Positions 24,553 through 42,227 of a DNA stretch of 64,000 bases are shown in pieces; positions within the stretch are counted from its first letter, which is position 1; every line of letters starts with the position of its first letter. The notes below the pieces were generated by a model. It saw only the letters and a list, made by a program, of their open reading frames with translations. It was not told the origin of the DNA and did not search any database. This stretch comes from Microthyrium microscopicum (Eukaryota), in contig MU004234.1 in the NCBI GenBank assembly GCA_010405405.1, forward strand, positions 1,267,275-1,331,274, read 5' to 3'. Position numbers and translations under genes: made by a program.

Positions 24553-24771
24553 ATGTGGGTTTCTTAATGTATGTTTTGAAGCAAACTCTTTGTGGAGTAA
24601 TCAACACGGGCCGGGGTCCAGTTTGCGGACCACCACGAAGACTCGAGTTACCCTGAGTGCTCACTTCTGTCGTCAACTTCAACTTCAAACCCTACCAGTC
24701 GTCCCATAACCTCAAAGCTATATCGCGTAACCATCCAGAACATTGGCTGGAGAAGTTGTTGAGCTGCAGAT

Positions 24772-27031
24772 ATGCCAGATCGAAAGCGACGTGTCAAGAC
24801 AGGCTGCCTGAGCTGTCGACAACGACGCGTGAAATGCGACGAGCGAAGGCCGATCTGCCAACGATGCGAGATAGCGAACATTTCATGCGAAGGATATCAG
24901 CCTGCACGAAGACTGCCACCAAAAAGACCTGAGAAAAAACAAGGCGGCAGTAATGGGAACGACATAGCCTCCCGAGTTCACGTCGATGTCGACGACGAAA
25001 GACTGGATCACCCTCTATTCAATTTTCCGAACGACTCCGAGACGTCACGAATACCCCATCAACGCGGCCGTGAGATTCTTGGTCAAATGCAGTATGCGCA
25101 TCGAACGGCCAAATTGCTTTTCAGAGAAGATCAGCTGTATTTCTGGCGGGATTATCTCTCGGGATGCGCCATGGGTGCAGAGTATGTGTATGATGCGATA
25201 ACCGCCATAGGTCTTATGCACAGGGCGGCTTTAATGCTTTCTGATGGCCAATTGAGATCACAGGTATGTTAGTCATGCGGTTCCAATTCAATTTGATATT
25301 TGTTCCCTCTGTATGACCTTAGTTGCAATGAATTTGATGGGCAACGACCTTCCAAAGGCGGACTCGGATCTCGCTTATTGTCTTACTTCCTGAATTTTGC
25401 CGGTTAAGATCAATCATTCTTAAGCACGCGAGTCCAGCTAGTTTTCTAGGTCAATCAATTATGATTCTAACTGGCATCAGGGACTAGACTACAAGGTGGC
25501 CGCATACCAGGTTTATGCCAATACATTAACGCGGTTGCACGACGTGTGCATTCAAGCTCCTGAAGCGCAACCAGAGATTTTGATCGCAGTCCTTCTAATC
25601 TTAACATATTTTGAGGTTAGTCAGAACCCATAACGGATTCAATTTTTCACTGAAAGTATTTAGTGTTTCGCTGGGAACCATACCGCCGCATTTCAACACC
25701 TAAGAACGGCGCAGAGCCATTTGGATGAGGCAAATTTGCCTGGACTCCTACATAGCGCGGCACTGGAAGCCTGTATCGGTGAGCTGGGACTCGTAGTTCA
25801 AGTTGTTCTTCCGCTGCCACTGATCGGCTTCCCTCTCATCAAGACTTTGACTGCTGTAGACTCAGTACCAGCTCCGTGTACATTTAAGGGCGCAAGAAAC
25901 TCGTCCCAAGATCTAGCAGCTCTTATCGAGTTACTCTGCAGCTATAAACGAATTAACGTTGGAGTCTGGTGCTTTCTCTCTAACACCGAAGAAACACTGG
26001 ATCCATATGCCCTGGCTGGATTTCAGGCCAGCATCTTATACTGGAGAAGTCAATCTGGGAGCACATTCGACCGCTGTGACGAAAACCAACATATCACGAA
26101 ACACACCGATCTAGAAGACCTCTCCATTCCACCAAAAGCCAAATCGTTTCGATCTCTGGAGGCAGCGTTAGGGGCCGCCGTTTTTCACTGCTACATGGGA
26201 CGTAGTGACTGTCTTATTTCAACGGCAATGGGGGGCAATGAACAACGCGAAAAATCGGCACAATTGCACGCCTACCATATTCTATGCATCGCTGAGGGTA
26301 TACAACAAGAACTAGAGAAAAGCCTGAATGATCGAAGTTATCTGCCATGCAACGCAATTAAAATGGGTCTCATTCCTCTGTTGTTCATGGCCTCTCAGTT
26401 CTGCTACGATGCATCATGGGTGGAATTCATTATCGAAAAGCTCGGATCTTTAGGACAAGAAGGCTTATATAACGGCACTCACTTCGCTCGCGCCTTGCAG
26501 GTACTACCTCTCTTTCAGAGTCAAGCCAAAAAGCTTGAGTCTAAGCAATCTGCGACTGCCAAACCCAGGACGTCGCCTCCGTCCCTTAGGTTTAACGTCG
26601 TTCCTATGCTCTTTCCAGGCACTGAGGAAGACAAAGCTGTTGCATACTACATAAGAGCTCTGAAACATAATCAGGTTGACAGGACACAAGGTCGAAGAAA
26701 TGTCGTTCAAGTTGTGGGCCGAGTTAGGTGGGAAAAGTCCACGGATGGTACATCCACCACTGCCGCAATGGACTTCTTTGATCCTGGTCATGCAATCAAC
26801 CAAGGTTTGAACGATCGGTGCATGTATCTACAGATTGCGAGGAACGAGCCCATTGCACTAGAGTGGGAGACTTTACTTGGCACAGATGCTCTCGGGCGGT
26901 ATGGTTACTTTGTTCATTTGGCTGCTGAACGGGACGCTCTGATTGAGCGAGTTCAATCGGGTGTTGATGATAGGCAACTGATAGACAAAATAAATGGCGT
27001 GCCCCCATCAACTTCGATGGCTCCCACATAA
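24772..27031 (+). CDS. Zn(II)2Cys6 transcription factor (N-terminal cluster plus fungal-specific TF domain)
   Basis: RVKTGCLSCRQRRVKCDERRPICQRCEIANISCEGY. Introns at about 25264-25480 and 25616-25663 link to the 25721-27031 ORF. Confidence 0.85.
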
Positions 27032-28306: not shown

Positions 28307-29044
28307 TGATGGAGCCGACTGGAAGGCAGGTTGAAGCTCAAGCCTGGATAATGTTGGAAGCCAGAGGGTGTGGGTTTGACCATAGCTGCGACATGGAGCG
28401 CTAAACTGATAAAAACGAATTGAATTTCCTTCCAGAGAAAGCTGCTTGCTTTATCAGAGTGATGTTTCTAAGAGAGGTGATGAACTAAGGCGGGCAGAAT
28501 AGGTGACGCGCTTTCCATCAACTTCTATAGCCCATCAGCGTCTATGAGAAAAGGTGCTGGATTTTTCATCGAGTTGGATTGACCGAAAGGTTGAAAACTC
28601 AATCTGGGAATGTACCCAACGCTCGATAAGAGAACGTACCTAGCGTGCTAGGTAGCTGATGATAGACAATGCACTCGATGGGAATGTTATGGCATGAATA
28701 GTGCATCGGCCCGACTATAGATATCGGCATGCCGAGACAGCTGCAGGTCCTAGCTCCTTAGCGGCTGTTGGGTTGTGCTTGCCAACTGTCGCAGCCGCCT
28801 TGTGACATCAACACATCATACAGCTCCAAGTCTTCATCTTGATCCTGCGTCCAGACCCGTCCTACCTGTACGCAACGTTCTTCGCACAGGTCCCACCTTT
28901 GAGAGCCTCTACACAGATCCGTCTACCTACAAACCTGCCAAACCTCTCCAGAACGCATTACAAAATATCCGCAGCGCCACCAAGATACGACCGCCACACG
29001 ACTGAGATCCTCGCTACTCTTGCCACTGAGGCGCGCCGAGAAGC

Positions 29045-32000
29045 ATGCGGAATCCGAGCCTACCGCGATGGAAAAGTATATACCTGATCTGGGTGTCAAC
29101 TGCGTTACCTCTTCTTATATCCGCTGTCACACACGAGGCCGGTCGATGTGCCATACGCGGCAACTGTGGCAAAGAGGGCCTATTTAGCCCACAGCTACCA
29201 TGTCCAGACAATGGCCCAGCTGAAGTACCGGATGATAAAACAAGAGCGTCGCTTATTGAGATATGTGGCGACGACTGGAAAGATTCGAAGGTGTGCTGCA
29301 AGCCGGAGCAGCTCGAAACACTACAGACAAATTTGAAAAGAGCGGATTCCATCATATCTAGCTGTCCAGCATGCAGAGCCAATTTTGTCAACCTCTTTTG
29401 CACCTTTACATGTTCTCCGGATCAGTCGCTTTTCGTGAACGTCACGCGAACAACAGAAAAAGCTGGGAAGAGTTTGGTGACCGAGCTTGATCATCTCGTG
29501 TCAGATAAATATGGCGAAGGATTCTACGACAGTTGCAAAGAAGTGAAATTCGGAGCTTCCAATGGCAAGGCCATGGATTTGATTGGCGGCGGGGCACAAA
29601 ATTATACCGATTTTTTGAACTTCTTGGGCAAAAAGAAGTTTCTAGGCAGTCCATTCCAGATGAACTTCAACCGATCGAACGAGGCAGACTTTCCCGGAAT
29701 GAAGCCTATGGATAAAAAGACAAGGAGCTGCAACGACGAAGACGAGCAATACCGATGTGCTTGTGTCGATTGTCCACAGTCATGCAAAGCATTACCCGAA
29801 GTGGCAGATGAAGGGGAGTGCTATGTTGGCATTTTGCCTTGTCTCTCCTTCGCAGTGATTATAGTATATTCTGGCTTGTTACTGATGCTTGTCATGACCA
29901 TTTCCGGTCATGTCGCATATCAAAAACATGCCCAGCGAAAGAATGAACAGCTCAGACTTCTCCACGATGCCGCGCAAAGCGATGATGAAGATGAGGGTGA
30001 CATTGTTCACAATGCTGGTATGCTGGAACGCCCTCAAAGACACTATTGGCTTAACACACTATGCGATAAAGCCTTTAGCAAATTAGGCATGTTCTGTGCC
30101 GAGTTTCCTGCTATCACCATTGGCCTGAGTCTCTTCGGAGTAGCCCTCCTCAGCCTAGGTTGGATTCGTTTCGCAGTAGAGACTGATCCTGTCCGATTGT
30201 GGGTCTCTCCCGACTCTGCAGCAGCAAAAGAAAAGGCATACTTTGATGACAACTTCGGACGCTTTTACAGAGCCGAGCAAGTCTTCATTGTGAATGACAC
30301 CGATGTATCAAAAGCCCCAGTTGTCAGCTACGATACACTGAGATGGATGTTTGACATTGAAGGTCGAGTCAACCGACTTAGAGCGCCAGGTGGTATCACT
30401 CTTGATGATGTCTGTTTCAAGCCAGTAGACAATGTTTGTGTTGTCCAGTCCGTCTCTGGATACTTCCAAGGGGACGTCAACAACCTTAGTCCCAAAACCT
30501 GGGAGGATGATCTCCAACATTGCGCGGAAAGCCCGGTTGATTGTCTTCCAGAATTCCAACAACCACTCAATCCCAACATCGTGTTCGGTCGATACGGTGA
30601 AGATGTTCTTGATGCTCAATCTCTCGTTATAACGTGGGTTATCAATAATCATCCTGAGGATTCGGAAGAACTGAAGAAGACCATGGTGTTTGAGAACGCT
30701 TTGAAAGATACTCTTCTGGGCATCCAGATGGAAGCTAAAGAGAGAGGTTTACGCCTATCTTTCAGTACCGAAGTCAGTCTCGAACAAGAGCTCAACAAGT
30801 CTACCAACACAGACGCGAAGATTGTCGTCATCAGCTATATTGTCATGTTTTTGTATGCCTCTCTTGCGTTGGGCTCGACATCATTGGGCATCAGGTCGAT
30901 CCTCAGCGACCCAACCAGTCTCTTAGTTCAGTCGAAGTTTATGCTTGGTGTTGTGGGCATTGCCATCGTTCTCATGTCGGTTTCAGCATCAGTTGGACTA
31001 TTTTCGGCCATGGGTATTAAAGTTACACTCATCATCGCTGAAGTGATTCCATTCCTGGTTCTTGCTGTGGGCGTGGACAACATCTTCCTGATTGTCCATG
31101 AGTTTGAGCGTGTCAACGTTAGCCATCCGGATGGTCCTGTCCATGTTCGCATGTCCAAAGCACTAGGCCGCATGGGACCAAGTATTTTGCTGTCTGCATC
31201 AACCGAGACTGTAGCATTTGCGCTTGGTGCAGCGGTTGGTATGCCGGCGGTGAGAAATTTTGCTGCATACGCTGCTGGTGCTGTATTCATCAATGCCATA
31301 CTACAAGTTACAATGTTTGTATCTGTTTTGGCACTCAACCAGCGACGAGTCGAGGCTGGCAGAGCCGATTGTATCCCGTGCATCAAGGTCACTAATCGTG
31401 ATCCCATGTCGGGCGGACATATGATGTACGGTATGGAAGACGAAAGCGCATTGCAAAGATTTATTCACAAGCGATATGCTCCCACGCTCTTGCGGCCAAA
31501 AGTCAAAGTTGGCGTTGTTGCTTTCTTCTTGGCACTATTTACTGCGGGTCTTTCTTTGTTGCCTGAAATCGAGCTGGGTCTGGATCAACGAATCGCAATC
31601 CCAAGCGACTCTTACTTGATTCCCTACTTCAATGACCTCGAAAAATACTTTGGTGTTGGACCACCAGTTTATTTCGTTACTCGAGATCTTAACATTACAC
31701 AACTCGAACACCAAAAGGAACTATGCGGCCGATTTCTTGCATGCGACGATTACTCGTTGTCAAATATTCTCGAACAGGAGAGAAACCGACCAAATGTCTC
31801 GTACATTGCAGATGCTACTGCATCCTGGATCGATGATTTCTTCCTTTGGCTCAATCCTGACTTTGAGGACTGCTGCACAACAAGAGGCAAATCTTGCTTT
31901 GAAGGCCGCGATCCGCCATGGAACAGAGCACTAAAAGGGATGCCGGAGGGTACAGAATTCATTGATTACGTCCAACGATGGCTCAAAGCTCCTACTACCG

Positions 32001-32986
32001 CGGAGTGCCCAGTCGCTGGCGCTGCTGCATACGGCACCTCTGTTAAGGTTGACGCTGATAATACCGCCATTCCAGCATCAGCCTTCCGAACTTCACACAC
32101 TCCTCTCAGAAGCCAGCGCGAATATATCGCGGCATACAAAGCTGCCCGTCGTATCGCTGCGGATATCAGTGAACGTAACGGCATTGACGTCTTTCCCTAC
32201 TCAGTCTTCTACATATTCTTCGACCAATACACCACTATTGTTTCTCTTGCTGGTAAACTCCTTGGCTCCGCAGCTGCCATCATCTTTGTCCTCACCACCG
32301 TCCTCCTTGGCTCGCTGCGAACGGGTCTCGTTGTTACTGCAACTGTCTCCATGACCATCGTCTCGATACTTGGCTGCATGGCGATTGCCGGTGTCTCCCT
32401 CAACGCGGTATCTCTCGTCAATCTCATCATTTCCGTTGGTATCGCACTCGAGTTCTGCGCTCATATTGCTCGAGCGTTTACTTTTCCCAGCACATCCGTC
32501 ATGGAACGTGCTCCCCGGCTTGCTTTCACCAGCAGTCAAGCTATGCGGAATGGCCGTGAAGAACATCTCATGTCACACCGTCTACCATCAGTGCAGACAA
32601 GTCGGTCAGCAAGCAAAGACGTTCGTGCATGGGCTGCACTGGCGAACGTGGGTTCTAGTGTCATCTCTGGCATCACCATCACCAAAATTCTCGGTGTAGC
32701 CGTGCTAGCGTTCACACGGAGTAAGATATTTGAGGTGTATTACTTCAGAGTGTGGGTCGCCCTGGTCATCATGGCCTCTACTCACGCTTTAATATTCTTG
32801 CCAGTGGCCTTGAGTCTATTTGGTGGTCGAGGTAAGTCTTTCCCCACAGACATGCTGACTTCTGATACTAATTGCTGCATAGGATATGTTGACCCCGAAT
32901 CAGAGGGGGGCTTAGAGCAAGACCTGCGGAGCAGAAGATATCCAGCTCTGCTAGGCGATGAGGAGTACGACTCGGATGAGTACTAG
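29045..32986 (+). CDS. NCR1: Niemann-Pick C1-like sterol transporter (Ncr1)
   Basis: Signal peptide, Cys-rich NPC1 N-terminal domain (SCPACRANF..LFC.FTCSPDQS), ETDPVRLW, sterol-sensing domain EVIPFLVLAVGVDNIF and C-terminal TM bundle. A likely 51-nt in-frame intron lies at 32832-32882. Confidence 0.95.
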   Translation: MRNPSLPRWKSIYLIWVSTALPLLISAVTHEAGRCAIRGNCGKEGLFSPQLPCPDNGPAEVPDDKTRASLIEICGDDWKDSKVCCKPEQLETLQTNLKRADSIISSCPACRANFVNLFCTFTCSPDQSLFVNVTRTTEKAGKSLVTELDHLVSDKYGEGFYDSCKEVKFGASNGKAMDLIGGGAQNYTDFLNFLGKKKFLGSPFQMNFNRSNEADFPGMKPMDKKTRSCNDEDEQYRCACVDCPQSCKALPEVADEGECYVGILPCLSFAVIIVYSGLLLMLVMTISGHVAYQKHAQRKNEQLRLLHDAAQSDDEDEGDIVHNAGMLERPQRHYWLNTLCDKAFSKLGMFCAEFPAITIGLSLFGVALLSLGWIRFAVETDPVRLWVSPDSAAAKEKAYFDDNFGRFYRAEQVFIVNDTDVSKAPVVSYDTLRWMFDIEGRVNRLRAPGGITLDDVCFKPVDNVCVVQSVSGYFQGDVNNLSPKTWEDDLQHCAESPVDCLPEFQQPLNPNIVFGRYGEDVLDAQSLVITWVINNHPEDSEELKKTMVFENALKDTLLGIQMEAKERGLRLSFSTEVSLEQELNKSTNTDAKIVVISYIVMFLYASLALGSTSLGIRSILSDPTSLLVQSKFMLGVVGIAIVLMSVSASVGLFSAMGIKVTLIIAEVIPFLVLAVGVDNIFLIVHEFERVNVSHPDGPVHVRMSKALGRMGPSILLSASTETVAFALGAAVGMPAVRNFAAYAAGAVFINAILQVTMFVSVLALNQRRVEAGRADCIPCIKVTNRDPMSGGHMMYGMEDESALQRFIHKRYAPTLLRPKVKVGVVAFFLALFTAGLSLLPEIELGLDQRIAIPSDSYLIPYFNDLEKYFGVGPPVYFVTRDLNITQLEHQKELCGRFLACDDYSLSNILEQERNRPNVSYIADATASWIDDFFLWLNPDFEDCCTTRGKSCFEGRDPPWNRALKGMPEGTEFIDYVQRWLKAPTTAECPVAGAAAYGTSVKVDADNTAIPASAFRTSHTPLRSQREYIAAYKAARRIAADISERNGIDVFPYSVFYIFFDQYTTIVSLAGKLLGSAAAIIFVLTTVLLGSLRTGLVVTATVSMTIVSILGCMAIAGVSLNAVSLVNLIISVGIALEFCAHIARAFTFPSTSVMERAPRLAFTSSQAMRNGREEHLMSHRLPSVQTSRSASKDVRAWAALANVGSSVISGITITKILGVAVLAFTRSKIFEVYYFRVWVALVIMASTHALIFLPVALSLFGGRGKSFPTDMLTSDTNCCIGYVDPESEGGLEQDLRSRRYPALLGDEEYDSDEY

Positions 32987-33283: not shown

Positions 33284-33562
33284 TTACTTCTTATAGGAGT
33301 CGTAGTTGCTGCAAGTGGTTAGGAGCGGGAAGAGGCCACTGACAACTGACGAGGCTACTTACCCATAGTCTCCGTATTGTCCATAGGTCTTGTATGGATT
33401 GTCTGGTGGTGGTGGTGGTGCGCCATAGCTACCATAGCTGGCATAGCCCTGGGGTTTGGCTTCTGGCTCTGCCACTGGTGCTGGGGCGGCTTCGGGCTCA
33501 GCAACTGGAGCAGCCACGGCGAGGCTCGAGAAGAAGAGAGCAACGATAGTGATGAAACGCAT
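33284..33562 (-). CDS. Small secreted Tyr-repeat peptide 1 (74 aa), candidate RiPP precursor
   Basis: Exons 33562-33363 and 33308-33284: MRFITIVALFFSSLAVA-APVAEPEAAPAPVAEPEAKP-QGYASYGSYGAPPPPPDNPYKTYGQYGDYGNYDSYKK*. Confidence 0.85.
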
Positions 33563-35757
33563 GTTGAGTGAGTATCTGTTGATTGAGTAAGTGAAAGTTG
33601 ATTGAATCTTGGGTATGAGTGGAAGAGATTAGGAGAATGGGGCAATAAGCTCTTCTTTAACTACTTGTCTGGTTGGTCTTGTCTGGTTGGTCATGCAAAT
33701 GTCATAGCTAGGTAGCTATGCTTGTTTGCGTCTGCAAGCGGCGGTGTGAGCGTGTCAGATTGTGGGTAACGGAACCTGCCATATTGATGGTACACTGCCG
33801 GGTGCATGCAGCACTACTTGCTAATGTTTCAATGCTCTGTGTTCCTGGCGGAGGGTCACTTGCCAGCCTCGTCGTTCAGCAATCGGTGTAAATCGATAAC
33901 TAGTTGTGCAGCTGAAGCCGTGATCAATTGGGACCCTCAATACTTGCATGATCACGTTTGCAAAAACAAATCTTTCAGATGATATCTGAGCACTAATCCT
34001 TACTGGCTAAGAAATTCATTTGGTTCTAGTAGGTACTGGCAATCGTTCTTTGATATGGCAAAACTCTCTAGAGCTCAAGTAAACCTGCCCCGCGAAGCAA
34101 GACTCCAAATCAGATGTCGGTATGGTAGCATGGGCTCCCGCCAGGGGGTGAAGTGGATTTGCAGATCGGCACTCTGTTACCTTGAATATTGAGTGGACTC
34201 AGCGGAGAAAAGGCTATCAGTCACGAGCTAAAATTGCTAGCATAATAGGATGTACTTGATATTGTCAACTGACGAGAACCAGACATAGAATGAGATCTAG
34301 ATGCTGGCCATTTCTTCATTGAAAGACGCAGCTGCAGCCTTTATGCAGCTGCAAGTCTAATAGATCACGGCCATGTATGCCAAGCCTAAAAAGCAAGCAC
34401 CCGAGCAGTCATAATTTCTAATGCGGACCCAACATATGCTTACAGTAATCTACTTTGCTGGTTCAAGTATCGACATGCCTATCCTCAATCCCCGGTATTC
34501 TAGCATCATAGTTGGCACGTCATTGTTGCACTACGCACAAAAATGGATTCCTCGGGATAGATTGGGATTTCATCATGTCAGCCTTCAACAAATTTGCATT
34601 GTTTCAGCCAACGACAAGTGGCTAAATTTGCACAGTCCAGATCAATGGATGTGGCGATCAATCATTGGCAGAAGCCAACACTCTTGAACCTGAACCGAAG
34701 AATACATCGTAACCAGTGTCGATTTGCATCATAAAGCCATGACCAGAAGACAGAAAGTTGGCAGCGTTATAAAGTACCATATGGATCGATCAGCCAGTGA
34801 CCACCCAGGCATATCCAGCCTTGCCAGCGCAGGGATCAAGCTTTCCCCACAAGGCTGAATTGAGAGGAACGCTGACACGCTAAACACGCTAGGAAGACTA
34901 TATCTACCTTCATTGGTCAGCAAGCGAGACGCTAACTCCATTTTTCCACGTAGGCTTGGCGCCGGCTTTTCTTTATTCAGACTTCACATCGTCTCAAAAG
35001 TGGAATGACTTCTCCAATCTTCCAACATCTTTACTATTGTCTTATATTGCGCTCATGGAGTCACAGCTATCGTAGCTGCCGGGTTAGATTACCATCCAGT
35101 CCTATCCGTGTGGTACAGATACTGCTGCTTTCCACATCTGCTTTGCGCAGCGGCCAGCCCATCTGATCTTGTTGGGCAAGTCCACCGTTCTCACCCAACC
35201 TGTCTGCAAAGGCAAAACAGCTCCTTTCAGCTCTTCCAAAGCACATTATTTACCCCGCATTCATGGCCAGCCTCTTATGATATCGTGGGTTTGTCTAGAC
35301 CAATGCTAAGCTTGACGATGGAGCTACGGATGCCGCACGCCCAGTCGCTTATTGACACTTGGTGGTAAAGCCAAGAACATAGCCACGCCTTGCTTTGCGG
35401 CTACATACTCTCTTACTGGCTGTGTTATCGGTGTGCATTACACGACCGCGATGCCATAACCTGCGTGATTTGATCTAGGCAACCTTCGCACTGGCGTTAC
35501 CTGGCTAGCCTGGGATCAAAGCACTATTGAACGTCTCTGGGTACCCTGGAGCTGATCTAATCCCGCTGTTCTGGGAACTTGCATTGATGTGTGGTACCGT
35601 AAGACAGTACTAAAGAGCTAGGTTGGAGTATTGAATAATTCCATTCTTAGGTAATATTTGACAATTGGGCTGTATTGCATTATCGTCTCCTCTTCCAGTT
35701 ATCTCGTCATCCACTCTTTATTACTCCTGATGCAATACAGACCACCCCGAAATCTGC

Positions 35758-36213
35758 TTAGTTGGCTTTTCCCGCGGCTTTGGCAGCCTTCTCAGTCTCC
35801 TTAGAGTACCTTCCATAGGTGCCGTATTTCCTGTCCTCGTTAGTCACGACATTTCACGAAGTTTCCGGGCCAGAGAGCAAGCATCATAGAGAAACCCCCG
35901 ATTGGAGACGAGCTTTTGCGGAACACTACACGTACCCATAATTGTCATATGGAGCATATCCTGCTACCTTATCGGTGTTTGCGACAGCTCGAGCCTGGTG
36001 GCTGTGTGCCTTCTCTGGCTTTGCCGCTGCCTTTGGAGCTTCTTTTGCAGCTTCTTTGACGTCTTTCGAGTATGTGCCATACGTAGAGTATGTAGGGCCA
36101 TAGCTACCGTAGGTGGCATAGGTCGTCGGATAATCTTTGTAGTTTGCATAGCCTGGAACGGGTGCGGCAATGACCGTCGCCGCGAGCGCAAGAACAACAC
36201 TTGTAAAATGCAT
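35758..36213 (-). CDS. Small secreted Tyr-repeat peptide 2 (116 aa), candidate RiPP precursor
   Basis: Exons 36213-35936 and 35830-35758: MHFTSVVLALAATVIA-APVP-GYANYKDYPTTYATYGSYGPTYSTYGTYSKDVKEAAKEA...VAGYAPYDNYGKYGTYGRYSKETEKAAKAAGKAN*. Confidence 0.85.
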
Positions 36214-37668
36214 TTTGAAGATATTAGGGATATAACTGTGAGTGCTGGAACAAATATTCGACTGAAAGAGCGAGGACTTGATTGTGGATTGCAAGAAGGC
36301 TCAGGTCTGTTATATGCGCAACTGTATTGCATCATCTGGTCGTATACATTGCTCCAATATAGTTGAGCTAATCCTTCCGAGCTTACAACTTACCATGCCG
36401 CCTGTAATGGTAACTATTCTTCCCATATTGGTCTCTTGCAAGCTGCCGATGCTAGGTCGGACAGACCCTGTATAGGTTCATATACCCTAGCTGGGCTGAC
36501 TATTCGCCTTGAACATTTCCCCAGTAGAGGAGCACGGGGAAAGCAACCCGGGGACCTTCGCTCTCCCAATCACCTTCAGTTCTGTAGAACATGGACGAAG
36601 TTTTCGTCATCTCTATAACTTGAAAGGAGGCCCAGCAGAAGAAGGATTCCGCACGGCCTACTTGAAAGACACATCGAGGGCTCCAATATCTGAAAGTCAT
36701 GGATCAATCCATATAATCAACTCAAATAGCCCGACTTATGTTTATCCGCCTGGATCGAAGCTACAAGCTTGACAAACAGTGTGATGAACGAAATGGCCGT
36801 GCCAAGAACATTATTGCCTATATTCTCCCTGCGGGAGAGCAAACGAGAATTTGATGGCATGGCTTATTAGAACCCAATATCTATAGAAGCTAACCGAATC
36901 CGTGGGATTTCTACAAATTCATTATTGACTACTAGTTACTCTCGTGCCTGCCAAGCCTGGTCAAAGGATTCAAAACTATAGTATTATTCCTGATCATATA
37001 TTACACATTTATAACATCCGAAAATAGCCCCCAACCAGATCTTCGGAACCCATGTAGTGCTACCAGTCGCTTTCTCTAGGAACATGGTGAAGTTAGCAAA
37101 TTCCCTAGACTACTTAGATTCAAATTGTCGGTCAACATGCCGTGTTACACTTCCGGGCTTTAAACTTTGGGCAATGTTACAATTGAACTCAATGTAGTCT
37201 ATTCATCCGCCTCGTTGCCCGTGCTGACCCGCAGTGCCCCGATCATGCGATCGATATCTGTTTTTGTACTACATGTAAGAGCGGGCTTTTGAACGGCGTA
37301 GGTTATTATTGCACTTTGTAGAGGGTCAAGCTTGTGGTGTGATCGAAATCTAGCCACTTTCTGTACCTCAAGTGCTCTGCTGATCCGCACATGCAGGCTT
37401 GATGTACAGCTGAACTTAGTGTACCTGGCCAGGCTTTCTATCTTTCTCATTTGACTTTATTTCCCTCCTTATTCTTTCTATACTGTAGCTTGGAAAATAG
37501 TACCGGTTTTTTACTCCCATCGCCCCCAATGTCCACACATTCTATCCAGAGCTAAAATCAAAAGAGCTAAGCAACTTGGATTTACACATGCCGTCGTCTA
37601 ATGTTTCTACATAATACAAGCCTCGAAAGACGTCTCATAATTCCTAATACAGCCATTCCCACGTCGAA

Positions 37669-38706
37669 ATGAAAGACGAACACTACGAAGACGCCGTCGA
37701 CGCAGAATCCCTCCTCTCTCACAGCACATCCACCGACGACCAACAAAAACGCATAAAACGCAACAAAGAAAGACGGAAACTGCCAGCATGTGCACTCTCC
37801 GCCGGTCTTCTGGCATCACATCTACTCACAGCCCTTGCGGCTGCTTGGGCAGGTAGTCACTGGTGGAGATATGCCGGCGACGTAGACGATACATGCGCCA
37901 AATGGACCACTCACGCCTGTAAGACTCTATACCCTTCTTTCTCACATGCTCTTCATCGTTGCAAGACTGACAGGATATAGCGCCGGTCACGCAAGAAGTC
38001 GCCGTCAAATACTCGAACGTTGCATATAACGGCTCTTTCTTCCACCAGACTATATACCGCGGCGACGCATCTCCTGAAGTTGACGCCGCCTGGTCAGCAC
38101 TCGGGGTGGATTATCGCGCCATGCGGATACCAGAGGAATATGCAGAAGCAGCAGGGCTCACAAAGAACCATGTTAAGATCCGTGATAAGTATGGTGGTGG
38201 ATATCCGGCAAATATGGAGGGACTGCATCATCTGCACTGCTTGAATCTGTTAAGAAAGAGTTCGTGGTATAACTTTGAGTATTATAAGAAGATGGGAGAG
38301 GGACCGTTCAAGAATGAAGAGCATGTTGTTAAGGTTCATATCAGTAAGTTGACATCTTTCCATTATCTACATCTATATCGGTCGTCTATATGATGTTCTG
38401 TCTATGTTGATTCTTTTTATATGTAAGACTTTCAGTTTGGCTAACGAGGTTGTATTTACAGCGCACTGTTTGGATATCATTCGCCAACAGCTTATGTGTA
38501 CGGCGGACACAGGCGTGCTGGGCCAGGTGTGGTGGAACACGGAGAAGCCGACGCCGTTCGTGGACTTTAACACGGAGCATCGGTGCAAGAATTTTGATGT
38601 GTTGAGGCAGTGGGCTGAGAAACACCAATTGCCGGAGGCAGATGGGCATTTGCCCAAAGATTACTTGGAGCCGCCGGCGGGAGTGGTGTATCCTGAGATC
38701 CCTTAG
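37669..38706 (+). CDS. DUF3328 / UstYa-family oxidase (285 aa)
   Basis: Exons 37669-37918, 37981-38343 and 38462-38706. N-terminal TM anchor, SPEVDAAW, HHLHCLNLLR, HITHCLDIIRQQLMC.AD and terminal HRCKNF: two HxxHC motifs. Confidence 0.92.
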
Positions 38707-38890
38707 ATATCTTGAATGCAACTTATATTGGAGTGCACTCGCTGACGACTGTGTGTATCTATGTCATGAGAACGTGATTTCGTCATGCTGTGAGATGTGA
38801 GATTCCCTCTTAAAGCTTCCTAGTAGCGCTTTCGTGATGATCTATATGATCGTTTCGATGTTGATGCATGGCTGGGCATGTTCAATCGCT

Positions 38891-40014
38891 TCATTGACTG
38901 AGGAGATGCTTGAACTTTTCAATCTATCGGGTTTGATTAGCATGCTAGATATCCAAAGAATGGCGACAGAACTCACCTTTGTCGACAAATACTTCTCAAC
39001 CTCGTCGCCCTGTACGCCCTTCTGTCCGCCAGTCTGCCACGTCAACGGTATCATCGCTACCCTCTCTTTCACCACAACCTCACGGTTTGGACCCTCCACC
39101 GCCCTAATCTTATCCGGATTATTCGTCAACAGCCGAATTCCGCGCTCCCCACCAAGCCCCAGATCAACCAACATCGCCGTCGCCAGCCCATAGCTCCTCG
39201 CATCCGCCGGATGTCTGAGCAGAAGATTCGCCTCGTATGTGTCATGGCCAAGATCTTGCAGGTTATACGCCTTCAACTTCTCACCCAGTCCAATGCCCCG
39301 TCCCTCCTGCCGAAGGTAGATAATAGCTCCGCCAGCGCTCTCATTACATGGCAAACACATCAGCCGCTGCGCCTCATCGAGTTGTTCTCCACAGTCGCAT
39401 CTTGCGCTCCATACTGTTTCGCCTGTATAACACTCGCTATGAATGCGTACCAATGGCGCCCTCTCCGCCTCAATCTGCGCTGGCGATGACGACACACCCG
39501 CCTCACGCCGTATCTGTTCCACACGACTACTCGTCCGCCCAGGATGTAGTCTTCCCACATAAGCACCTCGAATCATGCGATCTCGCTCCGTCTCGCCAGT
39601 CCTTTCAGCATCTAAGCTCGCGCTGCGGATATGTTCGCCAAAGACGATTGCCAAGTGTTCTTTCGCGTCTGCGTCATTCGTATACAAATACAAGAACATT
39701 TGTGCGCCGGTCGTGGTTGGGATACGGGCGCGGACTTGGCACCTCACATTGGGAAGTTTTGGCAGGAGATTTGGGCCGGGCGTAGAAGATGGAAGGACGG
39801 GTATGCTTTTCGCATCGCGAAGGGTTGCGGGCGTGGGTGTGTTGGTGCCGGGTGTGCTGGGCGGTGTGAAGGCTGGTGAGAGGAGGGATGGCGGTGGATC
39901 GTTAATGTTGTGGTTGGATGATAGGAAAGGGTTGCGTTCGGGAGAGTTGTGCGGTGGGAGGGCGGGTGAGTAGTGGGCGGGGAAGGGATCGTTGGTGGGT
40001 GTATCTTGAGGCAT
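38891..40014 (-). CDS. RIB1: GTP cyclohydrolase II (riboflavin biosynthesis)
   Basis: [46 protein letters not shown] and LLTNNPDK. A terminal intron after YLSTK gives [10 protein letters not shown]. Confidence 0.95.
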
Positions 40015-40683
40015 TATGGGAGGTATTTTGAGTCGCTTGGTGAATGTACTATGGTGGTGAGGTTATAGATAATGGTTATGAGAACTGTGGTGGTTGATAT
40101 GAGGATTCGGAGTGGTGCGGAATTGATGCCGTCGAAGATTTGATATCCGGGGTTGGACTCGATGTCGTGCGAGATGCGTAATGACAAAGCGGCGCACGAT
40201 GATGATAGAGGGATCAGAGTATGGATGAGTAACAGGTACACTCCACGGTGTATAATTTCCTGCTGCTGGTGTTTTTTAGACCTCGGCGAGGACAGTGGAG
40301 ATGTTGAGCGATGGTGTCGCGATTTCATGCTCGGATGTCGGTTCGCGGTCAAAAATGTGATCATCGCTACTACATACTATTTTACCCTGCCGAAATGCGG
40401 AGACCCTGAGCTTTGCTTCTTCGGCTTATCCATTGGCCTATGTGAGTGGCAAAAACATCCTTATCAGTATTATAATATGGGTCAAGGGGAATATTTGTTA
40501 AGTGAAATAAAAATAAGATATTTGGGGTATCTCAGATGTCGCTATAAAAATGCAAGCTTTAGTGAAGCCCACTGACCAATCATCAATCCATCATTGAACC
40601 ACAATTGTACATGAGAAATTCGAACTCATCAAATTCAAAGAAAATTGCAAACTCCGGCCCAATGCTTTCAGACTTTGCGTATA

Positions 40684-42227
40684 CTAGTCTATCCGCTCAT
40701 TTGGGATTCTTCCCCAAACCTCATCCGCACTGTTCTTTCCCTTTGATTCGGGCACGTAAAAGGCCACAAAGCTGGCAAAGAAAGCTGAAATACCGGCAAA
40801 GACAAAGTAGATGATTCCCTTTCCAAGCGCATTGTTGACGACTGGAAAGAACTGCGCGATGCAAAACGTTGAGACCCAATTGAAGCACAGAGCCCAGGTC
40901 TGGGTGGAGCTGACTGCCTCGGCGTCTACCAATTCACTAGCAAGAATGAATGGAATTGGGCCTAGACCAAGACCGAAGCTGGCAACAAATGTAACGACCG
41001 CTACTGCCGAGACAGCTGAGATGGAGTAGCGAATGCCAAAAGCCAGGAATAGAGAGCTGATGCCCATTCCTCCAATGGAGCCAATCAAGCAAGACTTGCG
41101 ACCGAGTCTGTCGACTAGAGGAGCGCATCCTGCTGTGACTGCAATGTTGAGACCAGAGACTGCCAAGTTGAGAAGTGCCGAGTTGGATTCGAGGAGATCA
41201 GCCAGGAGTGTGACACCATACATGATAATGGAGTTGATGCCTGTAAATTGTTGCGCAATCATAATCATGCATACAGCAAAGACTGCCTTGCGATGGTGAG
41301 GATGACGAAGAACATCAATCATTCCGGCATGCTCTGGCCGGCTCCTCTTAATAGAGGCGGCGGGCGAAACATCCTCTTCGTTACTGAGAAGGCCTGCGGA
41401 CTCGCCGACAGCTTCTTCATCGTCATCATCGCTCGAGTGACCCCAGCTATTGACCTCATGCTCAATATCGAATTTGGGACCTCTGATCTTTTGCAGGAGC
41501 TCTCGAGCCTTGCGTCCCTTGCCGTTGTGTGCTAGCCATTTAGGGGATTCTGCTGCAAAGAAGAGTCCAATGGCGTTGATGACTGCAATCGCACCACCAG
41601 CTGCGAGGACGACTCTCCACATTTGACCATAGCTAAGAAGATATCCCAACAATTGAGTGACGAAAATGCCGCCGTTGACCATGACTTGAGTGAAGGATCC
41701 AAAAAAGCCGCGCTCAGCAGGTGGCGAAATTTCTGAGACGTAAAGTGGCACCACCACTACCGAGGCTCCAGCACCAAAGCCAGAAATCAATCGGCCGATA
41801 GCCATAACTGCAATGCTGGGAGATAGTGCTTCAAAGACTGGGCCGATGGCAAAAAAGATGGTGGTGAACAACATGGTCCGGAGTCTGCCTTGAGAAGCTG
41901 AGATGGGTCCAGCTGCAAGAGCACCGAGAAGACCGCCCAGGGTAAAAATACTGCTGACCATACCGAGTTGAGCTGGTGTCATAGGTATACATTGTGGGAG
42001 AGTTGATTCCAAGTCCTGTGGTCCAAACAAGGACTTTCTTTTGCAAGTGATGACATCTCCTGGGGTGTTAAGTTCAGCCTGACTAAAGTTAGCTTCAACA
42101 CTGAGACAAGGAAAATGGGTTTAAATCGTACCAGATGGTAGCCGAATAAAAGAGGGCCTATCGTGGATATGAACAATAGGTACAAAAAGTACGGGGTAAG
42201 GTCCCGAAGCCAGGTTCGGGGATCCAT
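40684..42227 (-). CDS. MFS sugar-porter family transporter (Vps73/Ybr241c-like)
   Basis: MDPRTW...LLFGYHL|AELNTP (intron about 42131-42079), ESPKWL, QQFTGIN, DRLGRK and PESKG sugar-porter motifs. Confidence 0.9.

Follow-up and report, generated by a model that had tools for sequence, protein, structure and literature searches.

A candidate UstYa-type peptide module with tyrosine-periodic precursors in Microthyrium microscopicum and other filamentous fungi

Three genes of the Microthyrium microscopicum locus

The locus described here lies in a stretch of 64,000 nucleotides of contig MU004234.1 of Microthyrium microscopicum (hereafter the window, with coordinates counted from its first letter) and forms a block of three genes (33284-38706), which combines two genes for small tyrosine-rich peptides on the minus strand with one gene for an enzyme of the UstYa/DUF3328 family on the plus strand (Table 1). 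M. microscopicum is a leaf-dwelling fungus and belongs to the dothideomycetes. The block had been interpreted, in what we call the sequence-only reading, as a minimal cluster of the dikaritin type, that is, a locus for a peptide synthesised on the ribosome and modified after translation (RiPP). The interpretation developed below is carried by the recurrence of the enzyme-peptide pair in other fungi. In the window, the peptide 2 and UstYa genes are divergent neighbours, and the peptide 1 gene lies another 2.2 kb past peptide 2. We take the intergenic region between the two divergent genes to be their common promoter region; the k-mers of 9-12 nucleotides that it has in common with the region upstream of peptide 1 show no excess over shuffles.

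The two peptides are organised around tyrosines placed every three residues. Peptide 1 consists, in this order, of a signal peptide, ten X-Ala/X-Pro dipeptides, a Gln, a run of three Tyr, the PPPPP tract, a run of six Tyr and a terminal KK, and its nine Tyr follow one another at spacings of 3,3,11,3,3,3,3,3. The fifteen Tyr of peptide 2 are spaced 3,3,4,3,3,4,3,3,38,3,3,3,3,3. The N-terminal secretion signals were judged by hydropathy, the Kyte-Doolittle maximum over residues 1-21 being 2.25 for peptide 1 and 1.87 for peptide 2. The periodicity goes beyond chance, since in 20000 shuffles each mature peptide was never matched in its number of Tyr(i,i+3) pairs or of YxxYxxY motifs. Furthermore, a six-frame scan of the whole window found the YxxYxxY motif in six open reading frame (ORF) segments. 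Three or more matches occur nowhere but in exon 1 of each peptide gene (3 and 4 matches, with 7 and 9 Tyr per 30 residues), and the remaining four segments have a single match each, one of them being the last exon of peptide 2. The exon-1 products of the two genes are 41% identical over 64 residues (BLASTP, E 4e-6), both genes are interrupted by a phase-2 intron directly after a Tyr-Gly, and the two peptides are probably paralogues. No homologue of the peptide 2 exon-1 product was retrieved at E <= 0.01 among proteins of 51-165 residues, a set in which the peptide itself was not found either, and the ESM Atlas gave no usable match for either peptide (best score 0.77).

The UstYa gene encodes a protein identical to a database protein of M. 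microscopicum (P0001). Its exons 2 and 3 match the Pfam family PF11807 (E 5.6e-31 and 108.6 bits; E 1.6e-21 and 77.6 bits; cut-off 25 bits) and jointly span positions 54-220 of the 220 of the profile. In an alignment of 30 orthologues, drawn from several classes and showing 46-56% full-length identity, the residues H166, H169, C170, H203 and C207 of the two HxxHC motifs are invariant, the conservation of H206 being at least 90%. The membrane anchor was judged by hydropathy only: windows of 19 residues reaching a Kyte-Doolittle value of at least 1.6 start exclusively at residues 38-41, and the same holds for 26 of the 29 orthologues. The Protein Data Bank (PDB) contains no sequence relative of the enzyme. 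A structure prediction combining two UstYa lumenal domains with the pro-region and core of peptide 1 scored 0.58 and one unrelated control 0.45, a result that speaks neither for binding nor against it. Many orthologues of the clade are labelled 'Tat pathway signal sequence' in UniRef and one is named after the cyclochlorotine protein O (P0001-P0120); these names look like annotation transferred by similarity.

Spliced transcripts exist for each of the three genes. The evidence comes from run X1, whose RNA label on the record is a guess and which we treated as RNA since splicing at GT..AG sites is visible in its contigs for five genes; as contig depth cannot rank genes, the run was used for presence and splicing only. 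Of the words sampled from the region, X1 contains 66%, and its contigs skip exactly, with canonical ends, the four introns of the block (33309-33362, 35831-35935, 37919-37980 and 38344-38461), both UstYa introns being confirmed by GT..AG joints, as well as introns of the two flanking genes. The intron of peptide 1 (CT..AC ends on the plus strand) is skipped in contigs of X1, X2 and X3, and the 105-nucleotide intron of peptide 2 in those of X1 and X2. The runs X2 and X3 are filed under other organisms in the same year; their spliced contigs are of low depth (33093-33607, 35772-36270 and 37634-38574), have no differing letters, and likely represent library carry-over or a close relative, so that they are not counted as independent support. 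One odd X2 contig joins 38230 to 38512 with flanks that are unlike.

Other X1 contigs extend over intergenic DNA, upstream of peptide 1 (33572-34301), downstream of peptide 2 (35050-35784) and, with two G>T differences at 36217 and 36240, across the start of peptide 2 into the divergent promoter (36114-36875). They could be long untranslated regions, read-through or separate non-coding transcripts, the strand not being readable from contigs. The summed X1 word depth over peptide 1 (33370-33643) is orders of magnitude above that of the NPC1 and riboflavin genes, which is a hint only for the reason given above.

The block is flanked by the gene of an NPC1-type (NCR1) sterol transporter (29030-32986) and by that of a GTP cyclohydrolase II (38842-40062), as expected from the sequence-only reading, which had placed it between NCR1 and RIB1. 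Pfam scans of the 18 ORFs of at least 140 residues in the 18-52 kb part of the window, which genes made of short exons could escape, found no tyrosinase, methyltransferase, peptidase or P450 domain, in agreement with the earlier statement that no tyrosinase or methyltransferase is nearby. The same scans found neither an AprR-like reductase nor an AprT-like or otherwise dedicated transporter adjoining the three genes; the nearest transporter gene, of the sugar-transporter major facilitator superfamily (MFS) type, is located at 40684-42120, past the riboflavin (GTP cyclohydrolase II) gene. The locus has only one UstYa gene. A Zn(2)Cys6 transcription-factor gene (24763-27031, plus strand) is situated about 6-8 kb from peptide 1, and a Zn-cluster/Fungal_trans gene lies just past the precursor in two of the related loci presented below, L048 (2451-5744) and L057 (75-3383). 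This proximity is probably a coincidence, because it is not seen in the other loci.

The gene content proposed by the sequence-only reading is thus found at the locus: the two small genes with 9 and 15 Tyr and hydrophobic N-termini, the DUF3328 gene, whose spliced protein passes PF11807 with both the HHLHC and the HITHC motif, and the strings YASYGSY, YATYGSY, YSTYGTY and YGTYGRY, every one of which occurs in the peptides. What had to be abandoned is the idea that these strings are 7-residue cores. The only dibasic site in the two peptides is the C-terminal KK of peptide 1, peptide 2 being devoid of any, and since the strings are not bordered by cleavage sites they do not stand as cores of their own. 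As far as the sequence tells, the unit is a whole module of about 30-35 residues. The absence of internal dibasic sites, together with the length of about 28-40 residues of the KR-bounded units in the relatives, means that the window genes do not have the repeat-core architecture of canonical dikaritin precursors.

Table 1. Positions of the genes and sequence features of the block (window coordinates)
Feature	Position	Strand	Description
Peptide 1 gene	33284..33562	-	74 aa; exon 1 33363-33562, intron 33309-33362, exon 2 33284-33308 including stop
Peptide 1 hydrophobic N-terminus	33512-33562	-	from hydropathy
Peptide 1 pro-region	33452-33511	-	10 consecutive X-Ala/X-Pro dipeptides
Peptide 1 Tyr run 1	33425-33445	-	3 Tyr
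Peptide 1 PPPPP tract	33404-33418	-	
Peptide 1 Tyr run 2	33293-33394	-	6 Tyr; spans the intron
Peptide 2 gene	35758..36213	-	116 aa; exon 1 35936-36213, intron 35831-35935, exon 2 35758-35830 including stop
Peptide 2 hydrophobic N-terminus	36166-36213	-	from hydropathy
Peptide 2 Tyr run 1	36070-36150	-	9 Tyr, followed by a Lys/Ala/Glu-rich spacer
Peptide 2 Tyr run 2	35806-35958	-	6 Tyr; spans the intron
Intergenic region, peptide 2/UstYa	36214..37668	.	1455 bp between genes divergent by orientation
UstYa/DUF3328 gene	37669..38706	+	285 aa; exons 37669-37918, 37981-38343, 38462-38706
UstYa hydrophobic segment	37780 to about 37845	+	residues 38-59; the sole strongly hydrophobic segment
HHLHC motif	38226-38240	+	residues 166-170
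HITHC motif	38337-38343 and 38462-38469	+	residues 203-207; split by intron 2

Linkage of the enzyme and the peptides in other fungi

The sequence-only reading had set the linkage of the homologues as a test beforehand, and this linkage is present. By means of UstYa patterns alone, derived from the alignment of the 30 orthologues, 80 metagenome loci were fetched; merging those with at least 95% nucleotide identity gave 59 groups, among which upstream DNA of at least 2.5 kb was available for 23 distinct loci. A locus was counted as linked when at least three YxxYxxY matches occurred on the divergent strand within 4 kb upstream of UstYa. Such a cluster accompanies the enzyme in 19 of the 23 loci. 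In the six-frame scan of the fetched loci, clusters of the motif lie 1-3.7 kb upstream of the UstYa match and on the opposite strand. The controls gave 1/23 for the other strand of the same windows, 0/22 for downstream windows and 0/13 for far-upstream windows. Two of the four misses (L030 and L077) have at the same place an ORF with a signal peptide and a different Tyr repeat; no such ORF was seen there in the other two (L016 and L066). The best named matches of the enzymes of paired loci belong to Pleosporales, Aspergillus and Leotiomycetes, which is a rough guide to breadth only; the enzyme of L022 is 84% identical to that of Hyaloscypha and that of L045 80% identical to that of Cadophora.

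The other neighbours change from locus to locus. Pfam scans of 125 long ORFs in 15 related loci, with the same reservation for genes made of short exons, revealed no tyrosinase, methyltransferase, S41 peptidase or P450; what they revealed was a varied company including Paf67, UTP15, Sen15, an amino-acid permease, a copper amine oxidase, a GDSL lipase, a HET protein and a Zn-cluster factor. The conserved unit is the enzyme plus the precursor, no other neighbouring gene family being kept. No tailoring gene is retained beside the pair, either in these loci or in the flanks of the window, and the earlier description of a minimal cluster is appropriate.

Most of the partners of the enzyme in the relatives are multi-unit precursors, in which a signal peptide is followed by repeats containing one or two Tyr runs each, typically with four Tyr per run. 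The runs are often separated by a proline-rich or polyproline tract (at least four Pro in 8 of the 23 loci), and each unit closes with KR or RR, after which come X-Ala/X-Pro dipeptides. From KR to KR, a unit has about 28-40 residues, two Tyr runs and 8-9 Tyr. A (K/R)R pair no more than six residues after a Tyr was found in 18 of the 23 loci with Tyr runs, and 27 of the 42 sites recorded in total are followed by at least two X-Ala/X-Pro dipeptides. In the 99 runs of these 23 loci, Tyr is followed by Gly in 65% and by Ala in 13% of cases, and the position after that is occupied by K (22%), T (18%), S (16%), N (15%) or D (8%). Only the Tyr position and the next Gly are kept, a sequence pattern that fits Tyr as the functional residue.

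The two window peptides can be placed within this diversity. Peptide 1 is a single-unit version of the plan of the relatives, and peptide 2 resembles a second subtype (L011, L038, L048 and L057), in which a Tyr block precedes an Ala/Glu/Lys-rich spacer. The family does not conserve the position of the intron after Tyr-Gly, which is in phase 2 in both window genes and in phase 1 in 3 of the 23 loci. Many multi-unit precursors (L009, L015, L020, L023, L025, L032, L044 and L070; on the minus strand, starting from 1.5-3 kb upstream of the match to UstYa) appear to have a short intron of their own in each repeat unit, and these introns seem to have been duplicated along with the units. Automatic gene models run through them in the wrong frame, as in the database protein P0121. 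A search with a long repeat precursor of L007 gave 12 matches, several of which are mis-framed gene models and two of which, belonging to Pseudogymnoascus australis and a Trichoderma species, carry the name hypothetical protein.

Proposed mechanism and comparison with known systems

The model we propose, with moderate confidence, is that of a two-gene dikaritin-like module of UstYa type, in which the substrate of the enzyme would be the whole Tyr-run unit of about 30 residues and which in M. microscopicum would include two paralogous substrate genes. In the processing scheme, which makes use of the known specificities of signal peptidase, Ste13 and Kex2, the signal peptidase would cleave first. 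A Ste13-like aminopeptidase would then strip the X-Ala/X-Pro dipeptides stepwise, ten in peptide 1 and two in peptide 2, and the trimming of the terminal KK would leave, from peptide 1, a peptide of about 35 residues starting with Gln. Peptide 2, having no dibasic site, would end up as a protein of some 100 residues in which both Tyr blocks are modified. In the relatives, the action of Kex2 at KR would generate several such units per precursor. By extension of the work on CctR and AprY, UstYa would be a membrane-anchored, lumen-facing, binuclear-copper and O2-dependent homodimer of the Golgi/endosomal lumen. Its substrate would be the (Y-G-x)n runs with Tyr three residues apart, and by analogy with asperipin-2a it would probably link residues three apart, joining the Tyr phenol to the β-carbon of a neighbouring residue, so that small cyclophanes would follow one another along every Tyr run. 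The crosslinking of Tyr by the window enzyme is thus proposed on the strength of that analogy.

The enzymatic part of this model rests on the properties reported for the family. DUF3328 enzymes are described as membrane-anchored, lumen-facing and disulfide-linked homodimers whose binuclear copper site is built from two HxxHC motifs and which need O2 and electrons; the same source reports that other authors have reconstituted the asperipin cyclase AprY (PMC12435403). According to a review (PMC6514808), AprY alone is essential for both Tyr-to-β-carbon ether rings of asperipin-2a, a product with the core FYYTGY. The cyclochlorotine hydroxylase CctR has in common with the window enzyme the DUF3328 domain, the HxxHC(x)nHxxHC motif and the N-terminal anchor according to PMC12435403; it differs in hydroxylating a non-ribosomal cyclic peptide and in belonging to a non-ribosomal peptide synthetase (NRPS) cluster, whereas the window enzyme stands beside ribosomal Tyr-periodic peptides.

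The closest parallel among the characterised clusters is that of asperipin-2a in Aspergillus flavus (aprA, AprY, AprR, AprT), which like the window has a single UstYa enzyme beside the precursor and no tyrosinase. This layout, a single UstYa next to a precursor, is found at the window and in 19 of the 23 related loci. The chemistry is Tyr-based, and the core FYYTGY has the Y-x-x-Y spacing of the window family (PMC6514808). The two systems differ in that the asperipin cores have six residues and are repeated between KR, whereas the units of the window family have about 28-40 residues, 8-9 Tyr, the (Y-G-x) periodicity and often polyproline. Moreover, the asperipin cluster includes the reductase AprR and the transporter AprT, whereas the window genes are single-unit, lack internal KR and have neither gene adjoining. 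The clusters of ustiloxin, phomopsin and victorin are similar to the window in their UstYa/DUF3328 enzymes with two HxxHC motifs, their secretory-pathway precursors and their key Tyr, as described in PMC7329392 and PMC9233826. Unlike the window, they have cores of 4-7 residues, Tyr-Ile or Phe-Leu links and two to five UstY paralogues, together with a tyrosinase, methyltransferases and peptidases, none of which was found beside the window pair or in the 125 ORFs of the 15 related loci.

The comparison with the dikaritins as a class followed the definition of Ding et al., as quoted in PMC12048977, in which a cluster comprises a leader with repeated cores, tyrosinase and methyltransferase genes, and multiple DUF3328 genes with a transporter or peptidase. 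The window peptides have the hydrophobic N-terminus and lack repeated KR-flanked cores, the tyrosinase and methyltransferase genes are absent from the 18 ORFs scanned in the window and the 125 ORFs of the related loci, and there is one UstYa, with no peptidase found. The sequence-only reading of a dikaritin-type RiPP locus is therefore upheld in one part and abandoned in another. That the locus works like a UstYa RiPP system stands because of the conserved linkage of enzyme and precursor; that it is a canonical dikaritin cluster does not, several of the defining features being missing.

Another affinity is with the Kex2-processed repeat proteins (KEPs), which include the precursor of the yeast α-factor. 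The relatives share with them the signal peptide, the repeats, the KR sites and the X-Ala/X-Pro spacers, and the loci L007, L017, L023, L025 and L032 show the complete layout of a repeat precursor of Kex2 type. KEPs have several units between dibasic sites, whereas the two window genes are single-unit, have no internal KR and so fall outside this class. Umemura 2020 reports a nearby DUF3328 gene for 1758 of 7878 KEPs and describes the Tyr-rich types as mostly accompanied by DUF3328, type G-6 in 46 of 49 cases (PMC7329392). These Tyr-rich types (G-6; G-5/P-1) may overlap the window family, the comparison being one of descriptions only. Outside the fungi, the oxidative crosslinking of Tyr in plant extensins offers an analogy that is functional only. 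The same is true of the plant burpitides, in which copper-dependent or oxidative Tyr crosslinking takes place in secreted Pro-rich peptides with repeated cores (PMC12186524). Burpitides and extensins involve the BURP domain and peroxidases, which are unrelated to UstYa, and no homology is claimed.

Several points weigh against the model. Two of them have appeared in the above comparisons: the window peptides, without repeated KR-flanked cores, are not canonical dikaritin precursors, and no tyrosinase, methyltransferase, peptidase, reductase or dedicated transporter was seen beside the genes in the scans of the window and of the related loci. Furthermore, because DUF3328 enzymes are also reported to hydroxylate, halogenate and isomerise (PMC12435403), a crosslink is but one among several reactions that may take place. 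The UstYa clade is unusually conserved for secondary metabolism, and this degree of conservation would suit a physiological or structural role no less than a metabolite. As regards the linkage test, the choice of the motif threshold and of the 4 kb window was made after seeing the data; identical settings were applied to the controls, from which the linked windows differ very strongly. The metagenome loci may also be phylogenetically non-independent. Finally, expression was counted from one library only, X1.

Alternative explanations and significance

The main rival of the proposed module keeps the enzyme-substrate pairing and turns the product into a material instead of a discrete metabolite; we consider it rather unlikely. 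The peptides would be monomers of a structural or adhesive substance that is oxidised by UstYa, through Tyr/Pro hydroxylation or pre-formed crosslinks, and then polymerised at the wall, at the spore or fruit-body surface or in an adhesive pad. Plant extensins and mussel foot proteins are the likeness that can be invoked, and the Tyr/Gly/Lys/Pro composition goes in this direction, as does the polyproline of 8 of the 23 loci. A peptide 2 without a processing site would remain at about 100 residues, which also speaks for this role, and the identity of 46-56% across classes, with housekeeping and not cluster-like neighbours, agrees with a material too. That one DUF3328 enzyme is a proven hydroxylase according to PMC12435403 is also in its favour. 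On the other hand, the KR and X-Ala/X-Pro spacers after the units in 18 of the 23 loci are the signature of the release of discrete short peptides, and the window peptides, as read from their sequence, have neither a glycosylphosphatidylinositol (GPI) signal nor Ser/Thr-rich stalks.

A second possibility is that the peptides are of an unmodified pheromone or signalling type, processed by Kex2 and Ste13, and that UstYa merely uses the common divergent promoter and acts on another substrate. The processing signatures would indeed need no modification, and 6120 of the 7878 Kex2-processed repeat proteins have no nearby DUF3328, many being thought to be unmodified (Umemura 2020, PMC7329392). This explanation is improbable, since 19 of the 23 distinct loci retain the pairing while the other neighbours change, and the Tyr periodicity, the one kept feature of the peptides, concerns the very residue targeted by the known UstYa cyclases. 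Chance adjacency of a UstYa gene to functionless low-complexity ORFs is hardly tenable: DUF3328 genes are numerous in Pezizomycotina and we found 267 UstYa homologues, a number that speaks of abundance across species only, whereas both ORFs are spliced and transcribed, their periodicity beats 20000 shuffles, and the recurrence of the pairing elsewhere, with clean controls, already contradicts it. Given the linkage test, the unmodified-signalling and chance explanations are both much less likely.

The two-gene UstYa module can be taken further, in a form that we advance only tentatively. One widely conserved UstYa clade, present in several classes of filamentous ascomycetes, may have dedicated secreted substrates of about 30 residues in which every third residue is a Tyr, before as well as after a proline-rich hinge, and a single enzyme may stitch each run into consecutive small rings, thereby forming a 'tyrosine ladder'. 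Such a ladder would greatly exceed the fungal RiPPs known so far in size and in repetitiveness. Since the module has housekeeping genes around it and shows the conservation of a core gene, its product may serve the fungus itself, in surface, adhesion or development, and may be no toxin.

As to what is new, the enrichment of DUF3328 genes beside Kex2-processed repeat proteins and the existence of Tyr-rich types are already known from PMC7329392. In the literature searched, PDF supplements and figures lying outside the search, we found no description of (Y-G-x)n/polyproline precursors, of their tie to one conserved UstYa clade or of the product, and the motifs searched are absent from the readable supplementary tables of PMC7329392 and PMC6339444, those of PMC7329392 holding no sequences. 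The lead is well supported, easily testable and no surprise in principle. The precursor genes are largely absent from public protein sets or mis-framed in them, and as a result the family will escape tools for cluster mining that depend on annotated precursors.

In conclusion, the recurrence of the enzyme-peptide pairing in many fungi points to an uncharacterised family of enzyme-modified peptides. UstYa/DUF3328 proteins have only recently been shown to be copper enzymes, and the few peptide products known all derive from cores of 4-7 residues. The locus of M. microscopicum offers a clean two-gene system, free of accessory enzymes and with an unusually long and regular substrate. It could show whether one UstYa enzyme acts processively along a periodic motif, and it could reveal a new peptide scaffold or a new fungal surface material.

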